Positions 6,574 to 63,910 of a stretch of 64,000 bases of DNA are shown piece by piece. The DNA lies in the IMG/VR virus record IMGVR_UViG_3300037455_000372, positions 235,710 to 299,709 of that record, one strand, 5' to 3'. The first letter of the stretch is position 1, and every line of letters begins with the position of its first letter. The notes beneath the pieces were generated by a model. It was not told the origin of the DNA and did no database searches. It saw only the letters and a program-made list of their open reading frames with translations. The DNA is from a virus. Taxonomy: Duplodnaviria; Heunggongvirae; Uroviricota; Caudoviricetes. The translations under genes and the position numbers were made by a program.

Positions 6574-7302
6574 TTAGACGGCCCAGTCGACCGCCGCCAA
6601 GACGCGATTGAACTTTCCGAACGCGTTGTCACGGCTGCCCCACTTGGTCATATTTCCGCAAAGGCCGGTATGGTAGGGATATACCATACGGTAATCGCAT
6701 TCCAGAGGCTCGTCGTGGAGCTTGAGGATGGACAAACCTTCGTGGCAAGCCAGAAGGTCGTGCATAAGCTTGGACGGCCTCACTCCGTACTCGTCGACAA
6801 TCATTCCCTTGAGGCTACGCCAGATGCCGTTGGCGGCGTTGCGCTCGTTGTGGCAGACGTTCTTGCCGATAAGGACGATTCGGTCGATGTTGCTGCTTTC
6901 GAGGACGCTGACGGTAGCGTTCACGTCGCAGTTGAAGTTGAAGGTACGGATTTCGCTCTTTCCGGCGAACTTGGGCAATACCTTGCGGATAGGCACGATG
7001 TTCGCGCCGACGAATCCGCCGTTCATCACGAGATTAGAAATCTTGTGGGTCTTGACGAAATCGGCGACGATGGTCAGCGCACCGCCGTTGAAAATGGTGT
7101 CGGTATCTTCCGGGATTGTGTCTCGGACTTCGATACCAAGGTTCTTGAGCATTTCTACTCTGTGGAGGCCGACTTCCGAAGTCGGCTTGGGATCGAGCAC
7201 TACGCATCCAAGGACTCCCTTGTCGCGCAAGTAGCGTGCTGCAATCAGGTCATCGACATCTTGGTCGATGTCAGCAATGTATGTTATCTTTTTCATAGTC
7301 AT
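6574..7302 (-). CDS. Nucleoside hydrolase-like protein (IU-NH fold)
   Basis: N-terminal DIDQDVDD aspartate cluster, GGALT, MNGG, FNFNCD, MHDLLA. Confidence 0.65.
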   Translation of the reverse strand: MTMKKITYIADIDQDVDDLIAARYLRDKGVLGCVVLDPKPTSEVGLHRVEMLKNLGIEVRDTIPEDTDTIFNGGALTIVADFVKTHKISNLVMNGGFVGANIVPIRKVLPKFAGKSEIRTFNFNCDVNATVSVLESSNIDRIVLIGKNVCHNERNAANGIWRSLKGMIVDEYGVRPSKLMHDLLACHEGLSILKLHDEPLECDYRMVYPYHTGLCGNMTKWGSRDNAFGKFNRVLAAVDWAV

Positions 7303-8116: not shown

Positions 8117-9415
8117 GTGAACTACGCACCGCCTAAAGGCGGTGAGCTTCGCGTTGCGTATCGATGTTTCCCGCGCCTTTAACCGCAGTCCCTGCGGCGA
8201 TTAAACTTTTACCTTCGGTAAGGATGTTGATAGCGGCATTGACATCACGGTCGTGTGACGTGCCGCACTGCGGACACGTCCACGACCTTACGTTCAAGTC
8301 CTTTGTCAACATATTCTTGAACCCACAGCAGTGACATAGCTGAGATGATGGGAACCATCGTCCGACCCGGACTATGGTTCTGCCATACCATTCAGCCTTG
8401 TACTGTAGTTTGTTCAGGAACATCCTCCAAGCTGTGTCGTGTTCGGACTTCGCGTGGTCGCCTTCTGCGACCTCGCGCACGTCCAAGTCCTCGACCACCA
8501 CCGTTTGGTTCTCGCGGAGTAGTCGTGTAGACAGCTTGTCAAGGAAATCCTTCCTTCGGTTAGCAACTTTTTCGTGTTCACGAGCGATGCGCAAGCGCAA
8601 TGCCTCGTGTCTCTTTGAACCATTCTGCTTCTTGGCGAAAGCTCGCTGAAGGCCAGCGATACGAGTTTCTGATTTCTTGAGGAAACGAGGATTCGCGACG
8701 GCTTCGCCGTCGCTGGTAACGCAGAATTCTTTAAGTCCTAAGTCGATTCCTATTTCGAATTCGGTTGTAGGTAATGCCTTCGGCACAGCTTCTTCGACTA
8801 GGATTGACGCATAGTATTTCCCGGCGCGTGACCGTGACACCGTTACGTGCTTGATGTTTCTTACAGACCAGTCGATGTCCTCGTAGTTGCGGAAGGAAAC
8901 GAAGCCTACCTTCGGTAGGCGGAGTTTCCTCCCTTCTACACGGATATTATCCTTCGTTCGATAACTTGTATACGAATCCTTGTCTTTATGTTTCGACTTA
9001 AACTGCGGAAATCCGACACCGTCGGCCTTCCGCTCGAAGAAGTTCTTAAACGCCGTATTCAACGTAAGCACTTCGGCTGTCAATGCGTTCGAGTCGACTT
9101 CCTTCAAGAAAGGAAACTCGGCGTAGAAATCTGTCGGCTTAGACCGGCACTTCGTGCCGGTCGCCTCGTACGATTTCTTGCGTGCTTCCAACATACAGTT
9201 GTATACCTTACGGCAGCAGCCGAAAGTCTTGCAAAGCAAGACTTCTTGCTGCTTGTTAGGATACAGTCTGACGTTGTAGGCACGTTGAAACATAGTTCAA
9301 TAGTTCTAATTTTTATATAGTTTATATGACTAGTTAAATTATTTTTGTCAAGTTCCGCACATATCATCTGCCACCCTAAAGGGTACCCCAGCACCTAGCG
9401 GTGCTGGGTGGCAGT
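8117..9415 (-). mobile_element. IS200/IS605-family tnpB-only (IS1341-like) element; left boundary approximate
   Basis: Right end on minus strand GAAGCTCACCGCCTTTAGGCGGTGCGTAGTTCAC; branched hairpin at 9368-9414 shares the CCTTTAGG core; no tnpA. Confidence 0.8.
8133..9293 (-). CDS. tnpB: RNA-guided endonuclease TnpB
   Basis: AYNVRLYPN HTH; RuvC GIDLG, VVEDL, DRDVNAAINI; zinc finger CHCC..CPQC. Confidence 0.95.
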   Translation of the reverse strand: MFQRAYNVRLYPNKQQEVLLCKTFGCCRKVYNCMLEARKKSYEATGTKCRSKPTDFYAEFPFLKEVDSNALTAEVLTLNTAFKNFFERKADGVGFPQFKSKHKDKDSYTSYRTKDNIRVEGRKLRLPKVGFVSFRNYEDIDWSVRNIKHVTVSRSRAGKYYASILVEEAVPKALPTTEFEIGIDLGLKEFCVTSDGEAVANPRFLKKSETRIAGLQRAFAKKQNGSKRHEALRLRIAREHEKVANRRKDFLDKLSTRLLRENQTVVVEDLDVREVAEGDHAKSEHDTAWRMFLNKLQYKAEWYGRTIVRVGRWFPSSQLCHCCGFKNMLTKDLNVRSWTCPQCGTSHDRDVNAAINILTEGKSLIAAGTAVKGAGNIDTQREAHRL

Positions 9416-20518: not shown

Positions 20519-21151
20519 TTACGCATTTTTGCATAATCTTATTGAAAATCCCTCATTAGTTCCAGCGCGTCCGTTGGCTGTCCAATTAGCATATTTAGGG
20601 TATTCAAAAGCTACAATTCCAGCTTGAGAGCTAGAGTACCTATCGGATAACCAAAAACATCCTCTACTACCTAAATTATAAAACCTACCTTCATAAATTT
20701 GTCCAGATGGTAACATAGAAAAGTCAAAATAATCTATTCCATCCCAAGGAGATGGAGGAAAATTATTTCCAAAAGAGTTAGACTTGGCAAGCATATATTT
20801 AGAATTAATTCCTACTAATCCCTTTACATATTCATATATCTCTTGACATTCTAATTGACTTGGTACATGCCATTCCGATATTCCCCATTCTTGCAGCTTG
20901 CTAGTAATTAGACTTTCTACTGTAGTGAATGTGTATAATCTCCCGCACTTATATCCATTCCAACCATAGGTAGCTTCATCGTTATTGTAATATCTGTCAT
21001 CTGAACCTATCGGCTCATCTAGGTTATATCTGATAAAAATTTTATTCTTTATTCGTACCGTAGGATAAGTATGTGAGTTAATAATGACATCACTAGTATG
21101 CCATGGATAACTCTCTACACTCACGCTATTAGCTCCGTGTGTCAGTATCAT
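20519..21151 (-). CDS. Fib_succ_major (FISUMP)-like domain protein
   Basis: YPTVRI..NL, GRLYTF, WHVPS, FSMLPSG, GCFW, GFSIRLCK. Confidence 0.8.
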   Translation of the reverse strand: MILTHGANSVSVESYPWHTSDVIINSHTYPTVRIKNKIFIRYNLDEPIGSDDRYYNNDEATYGWNGYKCGRLYTFTTVESLITSKLQEWGISEWHVPSQLECQEIYEYVKGLVGINSKYMLAKSNSFGNNFPPSPWDGIDYFDFSMLPSGQIYEGRFYNLGSRGCFWLSDRYSSSQAGIVAFEYPKYANWTANGRAGTNEGFSIRLCKNA

Positions 21152-21163
21152 ATCTAATCTCCA

Positions 21164-21787
21164 CTAAGCATTAGCAGTTCCAAATTCGGCCAGCGTCCAG
21201 CACTTGCCAACGCAAGTGATCTGGCAAATCTTACCAGCATTAACCTTATTACCAGCAGCCGTAGACTGGTAGAACGTAGTCGTGTCGGAACTATCCTTGA
21301 CGGTAACGGTCACGTCGTTCGAGTTTCCGCTGTTATCAACAAGCAGAGCGAAGTTGGGAACGCCGGAATTCGCCAGTACGGTCAGTGCGTTCACCGTAGT
21401 CAGTGTCAGTTCCGTATTGGAGTTACCGCAGCCGATAGCCAGCTTTCCGTTGCTCAAGTCGGATTCGGTCTTTGTTCCGAGGTCGTACATACCGGCGTGG
21501 CTTACCGTCTCGATGGTATCGTTCAACGTGTCGAGTGCAGTCTCAAGACCGTCGATTATATCCTTGGTAGCATAGGTTTCGGTAATCACATTCCCGGAAG
21601 CGTCTTGTTCCGCGCTGGTGGCGGAAATATCCTTTCCGCCGATTTGGGAAACCTTGCTGTCGACTATGGTAAGCGTGATATCGTTGTCATTCACGTCGGA
21701 GCGGGCACGCTCCGAGTAATGAGAGTATTCGGCGGAGAACCCCTTGCCGTTATAGTCAGTCCACAAGTCTTTCTTCATATCTGCCAT
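21164..21787 (-). CDS. Putative fibre/structural protein
   Basis: AEQDASGNVITETYATK fibre-type motif; GAGGTG RBS. Confidence 0.6.
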   Translation of the reverse strand: MADMKKDLWTDYNGKGFSAEYSHYSERARSDVNDNDITLTIVDSKVSQIGGKDISATSAEQDASGNVITETYATKDIIDGLETALDTLNDTIETVSHAGMYDLGTKTESDLSNGKLAIGCGNSNTELTLTTVNALTVLANSGVPNFALLVDNSGNSNDVTVTVKDSSDTTTFYQSTAAGNKVNAGKICQITCVGKCWTLAEFGTANA

Positions 21788-21798
21788 AATTCACCTCG

Positions 21799-23007
21799 TT
21801 ATGCGGTCACGTCCTTGACTAGACGGATGGATGCGCCAGTGTTTAAGTTGCCGACGCCAATGATTGATACCGTAGGGGATATCCTATTTACGGTTTGTTG
21901 TGTATATGTCGTGCGAGCAACAAAGTAAGTTCCTTTATATGAGTATGCGGTTCCATCCCATTGTCTTTCACCAGAAGGAGGTAAGTTAAGTCCTAACGTA
22001 TTTGCACCTTGTGTGCCACCGTTCCACCCAGATGTTGCACACATATTTTTTAATCCATCTTGTGTCACACCTCCAGATGGAATATGCGCTTGTATAATAG
22101 TATCCCAATCTCGGTCAGTCCATATACGCCAGCCTTGTGCATATATACAATCATAGACTTCTTGTGTCGGGACGAATTCATTTGAATGATAGTAGTCAAT
22201 ATATTGGAACGATCCTAACGCACTGAATTTATACAGCATACCAAGGTCACGATTAGTGTCCTCGTCATCATTATACCAGAAGCAGTTGGTACCAACGGTT
22301 CCGAGTGGAATGTCGAGGTTTTCTGTGGTAACTAGTAGGTTTCCAATCTGTACGTACTTGAACAGGTGTCCCTTGACTTCGATTGTGTCTTTCGGTAGAG
22401 GAATCGTGATATTTGCATCGTGCTTCCAGTTATCCCACCTAGCGGTATCCTCCCCGGAAACCACGCCTTTCACCCAAGCACCGGCTGTACCGCCGGCTTC
22501 CGGCACGTTGACCGACTTGCTTTCAATGTCAAGCACGGTACCAGCAACGCTCACCGATTCGATTAGGTTGACTTCCGCGCCTGATTCGATGCCATTGAGC
22601 TTCGTTTGTTCTTCCGTGGTATACGAGGCCGTAGTAGCGTCAAGGACTGCCTTGTTCGAGTGGGAATGTGAGTTCTGCACGGATGTCGCGACATCGGAGG
22701 CGGCGATGCCAGAATCCTCCAGTTCGCCGTTAGCGTCAAGTCCAGCAAAGTTTCCAGAGGTCGCATTGGCAACCTTATCGGCCTTACCGGAAATATCCTG
22801 ATGCTCTTGCAATGCGGTATCGGCCTTTCCGAGTGACGCTTGCACGCCAGAATCCAAGTCAGACTTCGGTATTCCGTCAACCAGTTTCTGGTAGGCGGCA
22901 TCGGCTTTAGCACCTTGTTCAGCAGTAGCATAATTAGCAGACAACGCCTTGACACGGCGATATAGCTCTTGAGCACCTTCTTGTCCTACATAAATCTTAT
23001 TAGCCAT
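21799..23007 (-). CDS. Fibre-like protein with C-terminal FISUMP-like domain
   Basis: N-half shares modules with the 9468 gene; C-half YVQIGNLLVTTENL, GMLYKF, GWRIWT, GASIRLVKD. Confidence 0.8.
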   Translation of the reverse strand: MANKIYVGQEGAQELYRRVKALSANYATAEQGAKADAAYQKLVDGIPKSDLDSGVQASLGKADTALQEHQDISGKADKVANATSGNFAGLDANGELEDSGIAASDVATSVQNSHSHSNKAVLDATTASYTTEEQTKLNGIESGAEVNLIESVSVAGTVLDIESKSVNVPEAGGTAGAWVKGVVSGEDTARWDNWKHDANITIPLPKDTIEVKGHLFKYVQIGNLLVTTENLDIPLGTVGTNCFWYNDDEDTNRDLGMLYKFSALGSFQYIDYYHSNEFVPTQEVYDCIYAQGWRIWTDRDWDTIIQAHIPSGGVTQDGLKNMCATSGWNGGTQGANTLGLNLPPSGERQWDGTAYSYKGTYFVARTTYTQQTVNRISPTVSIIGVGNLNTGASIRLVKDVTA

Positions 23008-28875: not shown

Positions 28876-28904
28876 TTGACAAATCGATTTAATTGTGCTA
28901 TATT
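28876..28904 (+). promoter_or_regulatory. Sigma70-like promoter of infC
   Basis: TTGACA-N17-TATATT, followed by GAGG RBS. Confidence 0.75.
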
Positions 28905-28934
28905 TACCTTTGTAAATTCAAAAAGTGAGGCAAA

Positions 28935-29654
28935 ATGGCTTATATCAAGGCGAGCTTTCTCGCTATGAAAGATGAAAACGGTCGAGACCTAGGCACGATG
29001 GCTACCGGTCTCGCGAGAGATTATGCGCGTAAGAAGGGAATGGAACTTGTCGCAGTGAACGAAAACGTCGACCCGCCGATTTACACGGTAAAGCCGCGCC
29101 AGCGTTTCGTTCCCCGTGTTCAAGACGACAAGTCCCAGTATGAAGTTACCGCAGCGACCGTCCGCTGTACGGACGAGACCGGAAAGTCTCTCGGCGTCAT
29201 CTCAACTGCTGAAGCGAAGAAACTGGCCGAAGAACGCGGACTGTCTCTTATCGCCGTGAACAACAAGATTGATCCGCCGATCGGTCGCATCGGTGACTTG
29301 AACAAGTACATCTACGACCAGAAGAAGGCTCAGAAGGAAAAGGAAAAGAAGAACCGCGCCGCAGCGAAGGCTTGCGAAAAGAAGGACTTGAAGCTCACTT
29401 CCGACACGACTCCGTCCTCCCAAGCTGACCGAGACCGTATTATGAAGCAAGCGAACGATTTCTTGAAGGACGGTCACCCGGTAGACCTGACCATCCGCTT
29501 CCGTGGCCGCGAGATTTCCCACGCGGAGACTTCGATGAACCGCATCCGCGACGAAATCCTCCACGGTATCGTTGAAGGAACGGTCACTAAGGAAACCCGT
29601 AACCAGAACGGCGATACCTACACGATTAGCTGCAATCCGGTAAAGAAAAAGTAA
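28935..29654 (+). CDS. infC: Translation initiation factor IF-3 homolog with duplicated N-terminal domain
   Basis: VRCTDETGKSLGVISTAEAKKLAEERGLSL..DPPIGRIGDLNKYIYDQKK; C-domain FLKDGHPV..IRFRGRE. Confidence 0.9.
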   Translation: MAYIKASFLAMKDENGRDLGTMATGLARDYARKKGMELVAVNENVDPPIYTVKPRQRFVPRVQDDKSQYEVTAATVRCTDETGKSLGVISTAEAKKLAEERGLSLIAVNNKIDPPIGRIGDLNKYIYDQKKAQKEKEKKNRAAAKACEKKDLKLTSDTTPSSQADRDRIMKQANDFLKDGHPVDLTIRFRGREISHAETSMNRIRDEILHGIVEGTVTKETRNQNGDTYTISCNPVKKK

Positions 29655-29675: not shown

Positions 29676-29705
29676 GAAGGCTGGGCTTTGCCCAGCCTTT
29701 CTTTT
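29676..29705. terminator. Bidirectional intrinsic terminator
   Basis: AAGGCTGGGC-TTT-GCCCAGCCTTTCTTTT. Confidence 0.75.
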
Positions 29706-33425: not shown

Positions 33426-33454
33426 TTGACAACTCGCGAGCAAATTCCTATATT
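33426..33454 (+). promoter_or_regulatory. Sigma70-like promoter, leaderless thyX
   Basis: TTGACA-N17-TATATT-N6-ATG. Confidence 0.8.
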
Positions 33455-33460
33455 TAGAGT

Positions 33461-34192
33461 ATGAGTATTCAAATTTTATCAATTACGAACAATCCGCTCC
33501 AGTTCATCGGTCGTTGCGCTGGAATCTGCTGGAATTCCCCCATTGACGACCCCGAAAAGAACATCGCACGCGCCAAGGACTGCATCGAAAGCGACCACGG
33601 TCGTGTTGAAGAATTTCCGGACATTACCGTCGTGTTTGACGGCTACTCGGCCAGAATGATGCGCGAATTGTACACGCACATCGGCGGTAGTCCGACCCGT
33701 CTGCAGTCGTCCACTCGCTACGTGAACGAAAAGAATTTCAAGCATTACACTCCGCCTTCTTGCCAGAAGGAAGGTGTCAAGGAAGTCTACGAAGAAGCTA
33801 TGCAGCACGACGCCGAAGTGTATGGAAAGCTTATCGAGTTGGGCGTACCTCGTGAAGATGCGGCTAACAAGCTTCCCCTTGGAATGGAATCCAAGATGGT
33901 TTGGAAGGTCAATCTCCGTACGCTGATCAACTTCTTCAACCGCCGTCTCTGCACTCGTGCGCTGAAGGAAATCCGCGACTTCACGCTTGAATTTAAGAAT
34001 GTATTCAAATCGGTCGATGACGAATGGAAGTGGATTGCCGATAACCTCTTCGTACCGTCGTGCGAGAAGTACAAATTTATGAACTCGGCTCTTTGCTTCT
34101 GCCACGAAAAGAAGGGTTGCGGTCGTCATCCGTACATCAAGGACTTGATTATTAGCACAAACAAGGAAGGACAGAATGGAAATCAACATTAA
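33461..34192 (+). CDS. thyX: FAD-dependent thymidylate synthase
   Basis: DHGRVEEF, RELYTH..RLQSSTRY, PREDA..LP, NLRTL..RLC. Confidence 0.9.
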   Translation: MSIQILSITNNPLQFIGRCAGICWNSPIDDPEKNIARAKDCIESDHGRVEEFPDITVVFDGYSARMMRELYTHIGGSPTRLQSSTRYVNEKNFKHYTPPSCQKEGVKEVYEEAMQHDAEVYGKLIELGVPREDAANKLPLGMESKMVWKVNLRTLINFFNRRLCTRALKEIRDFTLEFKNVFKSVDDEWKWIADNLFVPSCEKYKFMNSALCFCHEKKGCGRHPYIKDLIISTNKEGQNGNQH

Positions 34193-59349: not shown

Positions 59350-62001
59350 ATGGAAAACAACAATATGAATAAAAACGGACTGACTTCCCAAGAAGTCTTA
59401 GATTCTCGCGCCAAGTTCGGCACGAACCAAATCCCTGATACGGAACCGACCACGTTCTGGGCGGAATTCAAGGAGTCCTTCAGTGACCCGATGATTCGTA
59501 TCCTTCTCGCAATCGCTGGTCTTATGCTCGCTCTCTGGGGTGCAAGCTTCATCTTCCCCCAGGCTGGCATCGAACAGACTATCTATGAACCGATTGGTAC
59601 TATGGTGGCCGTTCTCCTCGTCGCTACCATTTCTGCAAAGACCGCTGTGTCTTCCGACGGCAAGTACCGCGCTCTCAAGGCTCGCACGGAAAAAGACCAA
59701 GCCAAGGTCATCCGTGACGGTTCTACTCAGAGCATCGACTTCGATGACGTGGTCGTCGGAGATCTGATTCATCTGCAGTCTGGCGACAAGATTCCGGCTG
59801 ACGGTACTCTTATCGAGGGTTCCCTCCGTGTGGACAACTCCGCACTGAACGGTGAAGCCGAAGAGTGCCACAAGGAAGCAAACCCGGACGGCGTGGTTCC
59901 GGATGAAATTACTGGCGATACTTTCGTGGACAAGTCTTCTCTCTTCCGTGGTGCAATCGTCTATGACGGTGACGGCATTATGGTCGTGCAGAAGGTCGGT
60001 CTCAAGACTATGATGGGTAAGATGGCCGAAGAAATGGCCGGTGACGAACCGGACTCTCCGCTCAAGGTCAAGCTTTCCAAGCTCGCAAATCAGATTTCCG
60101 TTTTCGGTTATGTGTCCGCCGCGTTGATTGTGTTATTGTACCTCGTAACCGGAATTATTAACGCTGGCGGACCTTCCGCTTTCCTCGACCTCGGTTGGCA
60201 GCACGTTCTTAACACCGTGATTAAGGCCGCAGACCTTGCAATCCTTATCGTCGTGTGCGCTGTTCCTGAAGGACTTCCGTTGATGATTTCCCTCGTGTTG
60301 ATGCAGAATACCTCCAAGCTGCTTGACCACAACGTGTTGGTTCGCAAGGCTCAAGGTATCGAAACCGCTGGCGCAGTGAATATCCAGTTCTCCGATAAGA
60401 CCGGTACCATTACCAAGGGTAACCTTGAAGTGGTCGAACTCTTTGACGGCAAGGGTATCAGCACTGGTCTCTCTGACAAGTTGATTAACTGCATCGCTCG
60501 TAACACCCAGTCTACGTTCGACAGAAAGGGTAATGTCCTCGGTGGCAACGCTACGGAACACGCCTTGATGAAGTTCATCGGTCAAGACCATTTCCACTCT
60601 TGCTCTGCTGGCGTGGTCGCAATGCAAGGCTTCAACTCCGCTAACAAGTTCAGCCAAGCCAAGCTCAGTGACGGAACGCTCGTGTACAAGGGTGCTCCCG
60701 AAAAGATTCTCGCCAAGTGTACTAAGTATATGGACGTGAACGGCAACATCGCCGATGTCGATATGGCCGCTCTCAACGCAAAGATTGACGAAATGGCTAA
60801 CAAGGCTATGCGTATGCTTGCCTTTGCCTACTGTGAAGATGAACTCGAAGAAAACGTCATCCACGACAACCTGACTCTCGTAGCCGTGGCCGCTATCCGT
60901 GACGATGTCCGTCCGGAAGCAAAGACCGCAATCGAAGCTATGCAGAAGGCTGGCATCCAAGTCGTGATGATTACTGGTGACCGTCTCGAAACCGCTCGCG
61001 CAATCGCAAAGGACGCCGGTCTTGTCCGCAGTGACAAGGACGTGGTGCTGTCCTCCACCGACCTCGCCGCGATGTCCGATGACGACATCAAGAAGATTCT
61101 CAAGGACATCCGTGTGATCGCTCGTGCCTTGCCGACCGACAAGTCTCGTATGGTTCGCTTGTCTCAGGAAATGGGTCTCGTCTGCGGTATGACTGGTGAT
61201 GGCGTGAACGACTCTCCGGCCTTGAAGCGTGCTGACGTGGGCTTCGCAATGGGTTCCGGTACCGAAGCCGCCAAGGAAGCTGGTGACTTGATTATCTTGG
61301 ACGACAACTTCAACTCCATCAAGGACGCTGTTTGGTTTGGTCGTACCATCTTCCACAACATCTTGAAGTTCGTGAAGTTCCAGTTGACGATTAACGTAGC
61401 TGCAGTGGGCGTGACTCTCTTGGCTCCGCTCTTTGGCTGTGAACCGCCGCTTACCGTTGTCCACCTCCTCTTCGTGAACCTCGTGATGGACGGTCTTGGC
61501 TCTATGATGCTCGGTTCCGAACCCGCTCTGCCGAAGTATATGTCCGAAAAGCCGCGTAACCGTGAAGATTCCATCATCGACAAGTCTATGATTGGATCCG
61601 TGATTATCCCGGCATTCTGGATTATCGCGCTCGGTTTCGTGTTCCTCAAGGTTCCGTTCTTCACCACGCGCTTTGACTCTGTACTCCAGATGAACACCGC
61701 ATTCTTCGCATTCTTTATCTGGTCGGCCTTGTGGAATGGTTTCAACGTACGTTCTGACCGTTTCGCAATCTTCTCTCGCCTCAACGAGAACCCCGGCTTC
61801 TTGAAGGTGCTTGCAATCATCGCAATTGTTCAGGCTGGCATCATCAACATCGGTGAGTTCAATAACCCGGTTTGCCAGACCATTTCCAAGATGTTCAGCT
61901 GCATTCCGTTTGGTGCCGCTGAATGGGGAATCATCGCCGTGTTATCCTTCACCATCATTCCGGTCGCCTCTCTGGCGAAACTGGCTCTTACGAGGAAGTA
62001 A
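59350..62001 (+). CDS. Calcium-translocating P-type ATPase (P2, PMCA-like)
   Basis: VPEGLP, SDKTGT, KGAPE, MITGD, MTGDGVND, multiple TM helices. Confidence 0.95.
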   Translation: MENNNMNKNGLTSQEVLDSRAKFGTNQIPDTEPTTFWAEFKESFSDPMIRILLAIAGLMLALWGASFIFPQAGIEQTIYEPIGTMVAVLLVATISAKTAVSSDGKYRALKARTEKDQAKVIRDGSTQSIDFDDVVVGDLIHLQSGDKIPADGTLIEGSLRVDNSALNGEAEECHKEANPDGVVPDEITGDTFVDKSSLFRGAIVYDGDGIMVVQKVGLKTMMGKMAEEMAGDEPDSPLKVKLSKLANQISVFGYVSAALIVLLYLVTGIINAGGPSAFLDLGWQHVLNTVIKAADLAILIVVCAVPEGLPLMISLVLMQNTSKLLDHNVLVRKAQGIETAGAVNIQFSDKTGTITKGNLEVVELFDGKGISTGLSDKLINCIARNTQSTFDRKGNVLGGNATEHALMKFIGQDHFHSCSAGVVAMQGFNSANKFSQAKLSDGTLVYKGAPEKILAKCTKYMDVNGNIADVDMAALNAKIDEMANKAMRMLAFAYCEDELEENVIHDNLTLVAVAAIRDDVRPEAKTAIEAMQKAGIQVVMITGDRLETARAIAKDAGLVRSDKDVVLSSTDLAAMSDDDIKKILKDIRVIARALPTDKSRMVRLSQEMGLVCGMTGDGVNDSPALKRADVGFAMGSGTEAAKEAGDLIILDDNFNSIKDAVWFGRTIFHNILKFVKFQLTINVAAVGVTLLAPLFGCEPPLTVVHLLFVNLVMDGLGSMMLGSEPALPKYMSEKPRNREDSIIDKSMIGSVIIPAFWIIALGFVFLKVPFFTTRFDSVLQMNTAFFAFFIWSALWNGFNVRSDRFAIFSRLNENPGFLKVLAIIAIVQAGIINIGEFNNPVCQTISKMFSCIPFGAAEWGIIAVLSFTIIPVASLAKLALTRK

Positions 62002-62003
62002 CA

Positions 62004-62708
62004 ATGATTAAGCTCAGTAAAGGTGGCAGCATTAAGCTGAAGAAAGACACCGATTCCCTCACCCACATCTTCGTCGGTATGGGTTGGGAAATCGCCAAAG
62101 GCAGTCGTACCGTGACTCGTGAAGTTCCGGTAAAGTCCATCGGAAACCTTTTCCGTAAGCTGTTCGGCTGCGAACTCGTTACCAAGACCGTCACCGAAAC
62201 CATCACTCGTCGCACAAATGGCGAGTATGACTTGGACGCATCTTGCGTATTGCTCAACAAGGATGGTTATCCGATCGGTCGCCGTATTGAAGAAAATATG
62301 GTCTGCTATCACAACAAGGAAGTCAGCGGCATCAAGCACGGTGGCGACAACTTGACCGGTAGCGACGGCGAACACGATGATGAAGTCATCGATATCAAGT
62401 TGACCGAGGTTCGTAAGGAAACTGCAACGATTGTGGTCTTTATGAACATCTATCAGGCAGAAAACAAGAAACAGTCGTTCCGTGACCTTACCAAGGCTTA
62501 CCTCCGTATCGTGAACGCGGCCAATAACGAAGAATTGTGTCGTTATGACCTCACTCAGTTCAACGAGAAGGACACGGCTCTCGTTCTCGGCAAGTTGACT
62601 CGCGAAGGCAATGAATGGACGTTTACCGCAATCGGTAACTCCCTCAAGGCCAATTACCCGATCGAAGTAGTCAACCAGCTCAACTCCAAAATTCTTAACA
62701 ACAACTAA
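62004..62708 (+). CDS. terD: TerD-family stress protein
   Basis: LSKGG, GMGW, DLDAS, GDNLTG..DDE. Confidence 0.9.
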   Translation: MIKLSKGGSIKLKKDTDSLTHIFVGMGWEIAKGSRTVTREVPVKSIGNLFRKLFGCELVTKTVTETITRRTNGEYDLDASCVLLNKDGYPIGRRIEENMVCYHNKEVSGIKHGGDNLTGSDGEHDDEVIDIKLTEVRKETATIVVFMNIYQAENKKQSFRDLTKAYLRIVNAANNEELCRYDLTQFNEKDTALVLGKLTREGNEWTFTAIGNSLKANYPIEVVNQLNSKILNNN

Positions 62709-62723
62709 CAAAGAGGTACAACA

Positions 62724-63287
62724 ATGTCCATCAATCTTTCCAAAGGTGAAAACCACGTTCTCGACAAAAACACCCAGACTGCCTTGATTGGCTTGGGCTG
62801 GGATGCGAAATCCGGTTCCGGTGCCGCATTTGACCTTGACGCTTCCGTGATTGCTCTCACGGCAAACGGCAAGATTGCGTCCGACTCCGATGTCATCTAC
62901 TTCAACAACAAGAAGCACTCCAGTGGTGCTATCGTCCACAGCGGCGACAACCTCACTGGTGCTGGCGACGGTGATGACGAAACCATCAAGCTCGACTTCT
63001 CCAAGATGCCGGAAAATATCGAACGCCTCGTGGTCGTGGTCAACATCTACAAGGCCGATGAACGCAACCAGAACTTCGGTCAGGTGAACAACGCCTACGT
63101 CCGCCTCGTGAACACCACCGGCGGCAAGAACGAAGAAGAACTCCGCTTCGACCTTACCGAAGACTACTCTGGCTCTACCGGCATCCGTATGGCTGACATC
63201 TACCGCCACAACGGTGAATGGAAGATGAAGGCTATCGGCGAAGGTACGAAGTGCGGCCTTGGTGACTTCATCAATCAGTTCAAGTAA
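62724..63287 (+). CDS. terD: TerD-family stress protein
   Basis: GLGWD, FDLDAS, GDNLTGAGDGDDE, QNFGQV, YRHNGEWK. Confidence 0.95.
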   Translation: MSINLSKGENHVLDKNTQTALIGLGWDAKSGSGAAFDLDASVIALTANGKIASDSDVIYFNNKKHSSGAIVHSGDNLTGAGDGDDETIKLDFSKMPENIERLVVVVNIYKADERNQNFGQVNNAYVRLVNTTGGKNEEELRFDLTEDYSGSTGIRMADIYRHNGEWKMKAIGEGTKCGLGDFINQFK

Positions 63288-63301
63288 TAAGAAGGCTAAC
63301 A

Positions 63302-63910
63302 ATGGCAGTTAAATTGGCTAAGAAAGGCAACGTCATCGCTCTCTCGAAGGGTGTGAAGTATGCCATGATTGGTCTTGGCTGGTCTTGCGGTGCGCAGCAA
63401 GTTGACCTTGATGCGTCCGCATTCCTTCTCGGTGCCGACGGAAAGTGTGCGTCTGACGACGACATCATTTTCTACGGAATGGAAGCCGAAGACAAGACCC
63501 ATTACAGTGGTGGTATTCGTTATGGTGGCGACAGTCTCGCCGGTGGATCTGGTTCTTCCGATGATGAAAACCTCTTCATCGATTTCGACAAGATTCCCGA
63601 CCACATCACGACGATTGACATCACGGTGACTATCTACAAGTGGAAGAAGCGTCACCAGACCTTCGGTATGGTTAAGAACGCTTATTGCCGCGTGGTCTCT
63701 ACCGACGAAAAGTTCCGTCCGGATGGAAACGAAGAACTCCGCTTCGACCTGAAGGATGACTATCCGAGAGCAACCGCGATGTTGATGGCTCAGCTTATCA
63801 AGACCGGAAATACTTGGTCGTTCAAGGCCGCTGGCCAAGACTATACCAACGCTGGCTTGAACAAGCTCTGTCAAGACCGTGGTCTCGAAACCGATGGTGG
63901 GGACGACTAA
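63302..63910 (+). CDS. terD: TerD-family stress protein
   Basis: GLGW, DLDASAF, GDSLAGG..DDE, QTFGMV. Confidence 0.9.
   Translation: MAVKLAKKGNVIALSKGVKYAMIGLGWSCGAQQVDLDASAFLLGADGKCASDDDIIFYGMEAEDKTHYSGGIRYGGDSLAGGSGSSDDENLFIDFDKIPDHITTIDITVTIYKWKKRHQTFGMVKNAYCRVVSTDEKFRPDGNEELRFDLKDDYPRATAMLMAQLIKTGNTWSFKAAGQDYTNAGLNKLCQDRGLETDGGDD

Follow-up and report, generated by a model that had tools for sequence, protein, structure and literature searches.

Initiation factor 3 (IF3) is essential in bacteria, and in E. coli its gene, infC, starts with AUU and is autoregulated. The bacterial protein (InfC; TIGR00168; PF05198 and PF00707; structures 5lmn, 8jsg/8jsh, 1tif and 1tig) consists of an N-domain (NTD), a Lys-rich helix and a C-domain (CTD), in this order. 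As described from cryo-EM, the NTD lies at the platform near uS11, with its bulk mostly away from rRNA, and then moves to the elbow of the initiator tRNA (PMC5037330), which IF3 contacts through R25, Q33 and R66; the role of this domain is described as debated (PMC9723500). IF3 at raised levels is reported to inhibit translation of leaderless mRNAs in E. coli, and low IF3 levels to help it (both in the review PMC9031893). In the leaderless-mRNA system of mammalian mitochondria, IF3 (6rw4, 6neq) carries extra terminal sequence, with extensions of about 30 residues that are said to ease the block on leaderless starts, and its RFRGR motif is changed (PMC11775629).

IF3 genes of huge and jumbo phages are already in print (phrog_9787; PMC7162821, PMC7824862). 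They encode one N-domain and keep K110, lie beside IF1 and many tRNA genes, and have a function that these papers only propose; the available portions of both mention no N-domain duplication, and the supplements of PMC7162821 may list such proteins. A tandem IF3 N-domain was found in no paper of the full-text, mainly non-subscription literature, and a term look-up in PMC11662467 and PMC13282480 gave no mention of initiation factors. Likewise, none of 15 matching records in an annotated phage collection covered 80% of our query. Phage IF3s are thus known, and the tandem N-domain form is new to the literature searched.

Here we analyzed a 64,000-nucleotide stretch of a tailed-phage record, referred to as the window, that encodes such a protein; the record also carries IF1 and many tRNA genes. 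In common with bacterial IF3 it has the order of N-domain, Lys-rich helix and C-domain and keeps R25, K72, Y75, D106, F117, G132-R133, H137 and P176, but it carries a second N-domain core in front, and N16, Y70, G71, R99, Y107, V109 and K110 are replaced. The gene has a canonical start and what appears to be its own promoter, whereas several cellular loci show the thrS-infC setting. Unlike the single-NTD phage IF3s, the two-NTD family has neither a single N-domain nor K110. The likeness to mitochondrial IF3 is a functional analogy only, since the phage extension is a folded N-domain copy and the RFRGR motif is largely kept.

Results

The window encodes an IF3 with two N-domain cores

The virus record that contains the window (G000) is 355,392 bases long and 93% complete by the tool's estimate; it carries 40 tRNA genes and single genes for IF3, plus one for IF1. 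Matches to RtcB, Pth2, an RlmN-like protein and Thg1 were also obtained among 288 shorter ORFs scanned, so that this IF3 gene, too, resides in a genome of more than 200 kb with other translation genes. An alternative genetic code was rejected because all three stops are used. The IF3 gene follows a helicase gene, an order shared with the related locus L003 (41% identical), and has the following layout:

28935–29654, + strand: IF3 gene, 239 aa, ATG start; IF3_N, IF3_N, linker helix, IF3_C
28944–29093, + strand: NTD1, the extra IF3_N core, residues 4–53 (Pfam, fold match, dN/dS, profiles)
29094–29144, + strand: inter-repeat linker, residues 54–70, partly of low confidence in the model
29145–29294, + strand: NTD2, the canonical N-domain, residues 71–120 (Pfam, R25 kept, dN/dS)
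29295–29375, + strand: Lys-rich linker helix, residues 121–147 (helix 122–146 in the model)
29376–29642, + strand: C-domain, residues 148–236 (Pfam IF3_C, residue counts, dN/dS)

A preliminary description of this DNA had proposed a tandem N-terminal repeat and predicted two IF3_N matches and one IF3_C match, and both were found. The two peptides it had aligned lie at residues 10–49 and 77–116, within a repeat unit that comprises residues 4–53 and 71–120 (offset 67, 36% identical). Local alignment of one repeat against the other scored 105, a value reached by none of 20,000 shuffles (mean 21.8, maximum 55). Pfam IF3_N matched residues 1–60 alone with 31.6 bits (cut-off 26.9; profile positions 5–51 of 70) and residues 61–140 with 69.9 bits, IF3_C matched with 35–37 bits (cut-off 34.8), and the ORF scored 118 bits against TIGR00168 (cut-off 60). 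IF3 (InfC) family members would be expected to have exactly one N-domain, as those in the cellular samples do; this ORF has two cores. The 239-aa ORF is confirmed as an IF3 family member with a 2+1 domain layout.

A full-length AlphaFold2 model built on 30 family rows contains two beta-beta-alpha-beta-beta cores (pLDDT about 84–89) followed by a long helix (residues 122–146) and the C-domain. Foldseek matched this predicted dumbbell fold with helical linker to 5lmn_X (E 1.7e-13). Confidence falls below pLDDT 50 at residues 57–63 of the inter-repeat linker, which ranges from 6 to 33 residues across the family, and the pTM of 0.45 leaves the overall arrangement of the domains unfixed.

The DNA of the two copies matches at 72 of 168 bases (43%), including 14 of 56 third positions, which indicates an old duplication and not an assembly repeat. 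An assembly artefact or recent duplication was rejected on this ground and because the identical protein occurs on 54 contigs and one RNA-library contig spans both copies.

NTD1 folds as an IF3 N-domain core but lacks the tRNA-contacting residue

The expectation that the first segment would model as IF3_N held: the model of residues 1–60 (pLDDT 82) had 1tif as its best fold match (TM 0.81, rmsd 1.5), and all ten best matches were IF3 structures. Ordinary NTDs made up 12 of the 24 alignment rows, an input that favors the IF3_N fold, and the same elements appear in the full-length model from family rows only. NTD1 comprises solely the beta-beta-alpha-beta-beta core; the helix that follows a normal NTD is missing, with none after residue 54.

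Residue counts, restricted to rows with 50-residue cores, set NTD1 apart from NTD2. The R25 position is arginine in 0 of 82 NTD1s, as against 83 of 83 NTD2s and 74 of 78 cellular IF3s, and R/K66 occurs in 20 of 82 NTD1s vs. 56 of 83 NTD2s. Further, helix 1 bears a net charge of +2 or +3 in all 82 NTD1s (comparison means −0.2 and −0.6). Because R25 is gone, the linker helix is missing and helix 1 is basic, NTD1 does not appear to be a second tRNA contact, contrary to what the preliminary description had implied. A predicted complex of NTD1 with NTD2 plus helix scored 0.00, a value that bears on binding in neither direction.

A comparison of 12 genes (66 pairs, with L003 and the duplicate L020 left out) gave dN/dS values of 0.146 in NTD1, 0.135 in NTD2 and 0.185 in the C-domain, and of 0.32 in the inter-repeat linker; as synonymous substitutions are close to saturated, these ratios are rough. 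As judged from these values, NTD1 is under purifying selection comparable to that on NTD2, and a dN/dS of about 0.15 rules out a decaying remnant. The residues conserved specifically in NTD1 are G20, M22, G25, A27, A31, L38 and Y50, of which M22, G25 and Y50 are nearly invariant.

These last three could mark a protein interface, in which case NTD1 would be a counter-defense or protein-binding module that acts as a decoy for, or a shield from, a sensor, a protease or a ribosome-bound factor of the host. Possible signs of exchange or conflict exist in the family, as the NTD2 alleles K79, E108 and A117, sometimes with E118, recur in separate sub-clades (29145–29294 in the window), and the loci L002 and L018 are 98–100% alike in NTD1 and CTD and 76% in NTD2, which suggests that the NTD2 segment may have been exchanged between relatives. 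Yet the variable part is NTD2 and not NTD1, selection on NTD1 is plainly purifying, and the proposed partner is hypothetical, so that we regard this explanation as very improbable.

The canonical part keeps its fidelity residues and has a changed C-domain

With E. coli numbers assigned by alignment to 8jsg_A, the tRNA-elbow residues R25 and R66 and the fidelity residue Y75 are present in the domain preceding the linker, NTD2 (query R77, R118 and Y127; K72 is K124). K72 and Y75 of the linker helix are each found in 87 of 87 family members. In the C-domain D106, F117, G132, R133 and H137 are kept in 86–87 of 87; the GR motif is retained (G132 and R133 in 87/87), R131 occurs in 66 of 87, and the D106–F117 spacing is unchanged. 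The retention of Y75, R25, G132, R133 and H137 together argues for retained proofreading and much normal function.

In contrast, R99, Y107, V109 and K110 are replaced family-wide. K110 is I, L or M in all 87 members, as compared with K or R in 79 of 80 cellular IF3s, and the four closest single-NTD relatives have K there. Arginine occupies position 109 in 87 of 87 members and position 107 in 85 of 87, and R99 is T or P. (PMC13246957 was discarded as a source on Y107, as its Y107 belongs to RimM.) Family-wide changes in both NTD1 and the C-domain agree with the earlier notion of a remodelled factor. The K110L variant of E. coli IF3 is described as failing to bind 30S (PMC7145577), and loss of K110 would, by inference, weaken the hold of the C-domain on 30S; the new arginines 107 and 109 may replace this contact.

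Two alternative readings concern this substitution. According to the first, the protein would be a dominant-negative inhibitor, its C-domain off the P site and the platform/anti-SD region blocked, shutting down leadered host translation. The resemblance of the K110 to I/L change to the non-binding E. coli mutant and a basic NTD1 helix near the mRNA exit region would suit it, but leadered genes, that of IF3 among them, are the majority in the phage, and the protein retains the GR motif, Y75 and R25 and is under even purifying selection over its whole length; of all the explanations considered we find this one the least probable.

According to the second, the protein is an ordinary IF3 that adds to the factor keeping 30S free for the phage's own mRNAs, NTD1 raising only its affinity or stability, R107/R109 replacing K110, and selectivity being unchanged. 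The conservation of R25, K72, Y75, D106, F117, G132, R133 and H137 in 86–87 of 87 members, the TIGR00168 match and the general translation-support kit of the phage (IF1, Pth2, RtcB, Thg1, 40 tRNAs) all favor it. Against it, single-NTD phage IF3s keep K110 and manage without NTD1, the C-domain change accompanies the duplication in 87 of 87 members, and NTD1 has nearly invariant surface residues of its own. We rate it a serious candidate, albeit somewhat unlikely.

The two-NTD layout was found in one phage clade and in none of the cellular samples

Two protein searches (in the second, the best 120 of 448 matches) yielded 128 IF3-related proteins, at least 89 of them with two N-domain cores and at least 87 of these full length and distinct. 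Among the matches listed, the full-length two-NTD relatives are 37–100% identical to the query, nine of them at least 97%, and the score drops from 220 to 143 bits beneath the last member. Two family-like rows without the front part, P0048 and P0099, come from contigs shorter than 1 kb. Of 91 viral or metagenome loci, 87 gave a core match, 13 with two cores, all belonging to this family, and 74 with one. Extra N-terminal matches in some metagenome loci (query 8/9–194/198) proved to be an upstream thrS frame, the IF3s there having one N-domain.

The proposal would have been refuted had the layout been common in cellular IF3s, and the layout was absent from the cellular samples: an adjacent IF3_N pair occurred in none of 363 bacterial genomes sampled from three phyla (IF3_N matched in 359, twice in 12, never adjacently; the same search detected the tandem in G001), and in a scan that covered 16 of 64 parts, each of the 80 best genome loci had one N-domain. 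Likewise, only ordinary-length IF3 clusters were seen under 0.9 in the ESM Atlas. Independent tandem duplications may exist elsewhere.

In a quick tree of 80 rows without NTD1, a weakly supported branch (56) set off the 21 family rows. They fell within a well-supported group that also comprises the single-NTD P0102 and P0105 (96) and P0098 (95), with the viral L004 and L005 adjacent (94); P0098, P0102, L004 and L005 are the nearest single-NTD IF3s. In a 50-column tree, 12 NTD1 rows formed one clade (100/99) attached among the NTD2s, and NTD1 plus NTD2 were separated from 25 other rows with support of 94/81, unstarred. Cumulatively, these trees point to one old duplication inside the phage IF3 lineage as the likely origin, and the two-NTD IF3 is, by these comparisons, a real, selected, clade-wide variant whose function is a proposal. 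P0102, P0105 and their kin, a sister group of the two-NTD family, are IF3s of 199 aa that keep K110 and whose one N-domain is degenerate (about 22 bits); pieces of them occur in the same gut RNA run, X7.

The IF3 gene has putative expression signals of its own and a leadered start

The gene is flanked by these elements:

28876–28904, + strand: sigma70-type promoter-like site (TTGACA and TATATT 17 nt apart, −10 preceded by TG)
28924–28930, + strand: Shine-Dalgarno-like site, from sequence, preceding the canonical ATG
29677–29705, + strand: intrinsic-terminator-like hairpin with T run

The promoter-like site agrees with the consensus at 11 of 12 positions, a consensus match only, its start site being unmapped, and 13 of 13 related loci inspected have a TATA(T/A)T hexamer ahead of the IF3 gene. 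With the terminator-like hairpin downstream, the gene is probably monocistronic. It is itself leadered, and its relatives start with ATG (11/13) or GTG (2/13). RNA-library contigs from four studies cover it, one spanning 28955–29653 without a gap; as assembled contigs, they permit no inference on transcription, strand or level.

Predicted leaderless starts are enriched in the two-NTD phages

In G000 an ATG lying 6–7 nt after TATA(T/A)T and opening a long frame was counted 22 times (3.9 expected). The other two-NTD records gave similar excesses (G001, 14 vs. 2.1; G003, 15 vs. 1.6; G002, 12 vs. 0.8), in contrast to the single-NTD phages G004 (3 vs. 2.7) and G005 (3 vs. 2.1); four cases occurred in the pooled cellular loci. 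A predicted leaderless ATG accompanies 10 of the 48 strict promoter-like sites of G000. One predicted leaderless start is that of thyX:

33426–33463, + strand: promoter-like site whose −10 is followed, 6 nt on, by the thyX ATG (33461), a predicted leaderless start

Other predicted starts of this kind in the window are at 7302, 26958, 39391, 43026, 48333 and 49889. In all, 27 were predicted in G000 vs. 367 crudely called genes, and the genes behind most promoters are leadered. As the four two-NTD records belong to a single clade, the match between leaderless starts and the two-NTD layout counts as one observation; the contrast with G004 and G005 could be due to nothing more than different hosts. 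Moreover, the same style of promoter is seen in the mostly unrelated record G054, which gave no IF3 match (6 vs. 2.1 expected, P 0.02). Leaderless starts are therefore not confined to phages with IF3, and the host may use them anyway. Of 313 ortholog pairs, 29 were flagged for non-canonical starts and none was convincing on reading. Both the G054 signal and the lack of non-canonical starts in these pairs count in favor of an ordinary IF3.

The suggestion of the preliminary description that initiation selectivity is altered during infection thus fared unevenly: it would fit the leaderless signal of the clade, and finds no backing in non-canonical starts and little in the initiator tRNA, described below.

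The phage initiator tRNA has an altered anticodon stem

G000 encodes an initiator-type tRNA (C1:56058–56131, minus strand; L094:16058–16131) with C1×U72 and A11-U24, anticodon-stem pairs A-U, G-C and U·G, and a U32/U38 loop, in which only the middle of the three stem G-C pairs is kept. An exact-pattern scan for tRNAs of this type returned no match, and the stem pattern was seen in none of 121 other viral CAT tRNAs.

In E. coli, NTD mutants are described as relaxing 3GC scrutiny (PMC9723500) and 3GC-mutant tRNAs as retaining IF3 on 70S (PMC5389676), and phage tRNAs can serve escape from a host nuclease (PMC10264068). The phage IF3 might accordingly be matched to this tRNA, licensing an initiator that has lost two of its three stem G-C pairs, possibly as an escape from an anticodon nuclease. 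However, in a search with the middle pair held constant, 79 of the 121 viral initiator-type tRNAs also depart from GGG/CCC, and an IF3 match of any kind is present in just 2 of the 48 records with such tRNAs (50 of 119 loci submitted). In addition, the middle pair, which is kept, is reported to suffice in E. coli (PMC5389676), the two-NTD relative G003 has only the first stem pair changed, and neither of the two tRNAs detected in G001 (81% complete) is a Met tRNA. We consider such a match quite improbable. Among the RtcB neighbors, which were mostly unrelated records, IF3 was found in none of 13.

Discussion

The explanation we favor, at somewhat less than even confidence, is that the protein is a working phage IF3 with an added RNA anchor and relaxed gatekeeping on the host 30S, which would favor the predicted leaderless mRNAs of the phage. 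The retained Y75, R25 and GR motif, the signal in G054, the lack of non-canonical starts and the weak tRNA link hold it to this level and keep the ordinary IF3 in contention. A further-reaching reading, in which the protein would be a naturally occurring IF3 of shifted selectivity and new domain layout, we take to be unlikely.

The mechanism we envisage has four steps, given in order of falling confidence. Firstly, the protein would be made from its own host-type promoter and normal ATG start and would compete with host IF3. Secondly, NTD2, the linker helix and the GR motif would do their usual jobs at the tRNA elbow, h23/h24 and the P site, respectively. Thirdly, given the position of the NTD at the platform (PMC5037330), a domain tethered before NTD2 would sit at the platform/mRNA exit side, where NTD1, with its basic helix on RNA, would act as an added anchor; charge is the sole ground for proposing RNA as its target in place of the tRNA elbow. 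Fourthly, loss of K110, R99 and Y107 would weaken the hold of the C-domain at the P site, and subunit joining and leaderless or 70S starts would be blocked less than by host IF3.

The two-domain plan is held in every bacterial genome sampled (363, three phyla), and this clade departs from it. It thus offers a natural experiment, in which a selected second N-domain without the tRNA contacts is combined with a substitution by which E. coli IF3 is described as losing its binding to 30S, and which bears on whether phages reprogram start-site choice. It could also yield a leaderless-permissive IF3 for cell-free translation. If the protein behaves as host IF3 does, it is an unusual but minor variant.

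Phage genome and host

The runs holding the window are bovine and sheep gut libraries. Fib_succ_major domain genes (window 20519–23007) hint at a Fibrobacter- or Bacteroidota-type host; the domain passes the cut-off once, and the family also matches in Bacteroides. An IS605-type TnpB (window 8133–9293) has about 60 close relatives (67–94%) on other contigs, several longer than 400 kb, and on this sequence evidence the family is apparently resident in this phage group; none of the 120 matches listed named an organism, giving no clue to the host. Three TerD-domain genes lie in a row at 61923–63910 of the window.

Outside the IF3 gene, partial translation-factor matches were seen in two places. 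In the tRNA region a 111-aa protein (L095:4975–5307) matches only the first 44 positions of EF-Ts, and in a complete 463-kb virus record a 113-aa frame (L344; G037:C1:89541–89780) matches the IF3 C-domain only.

Finally, a stretch of about 335 nt outside the window (L094:14876–15210; G000:C1:54876–55210), beside a 92-nt tRNA-Met(CAT) and about 3 kb from the RtcB gene, had no Rfam match and a fold z of −2.8. In RNA-library contigs of two studies its depth reached 330 and 261, far above the flanks, a head-to-tail joint being present in one of the two; the stretch may represent an abundant non-coding RNA, structured or circular.
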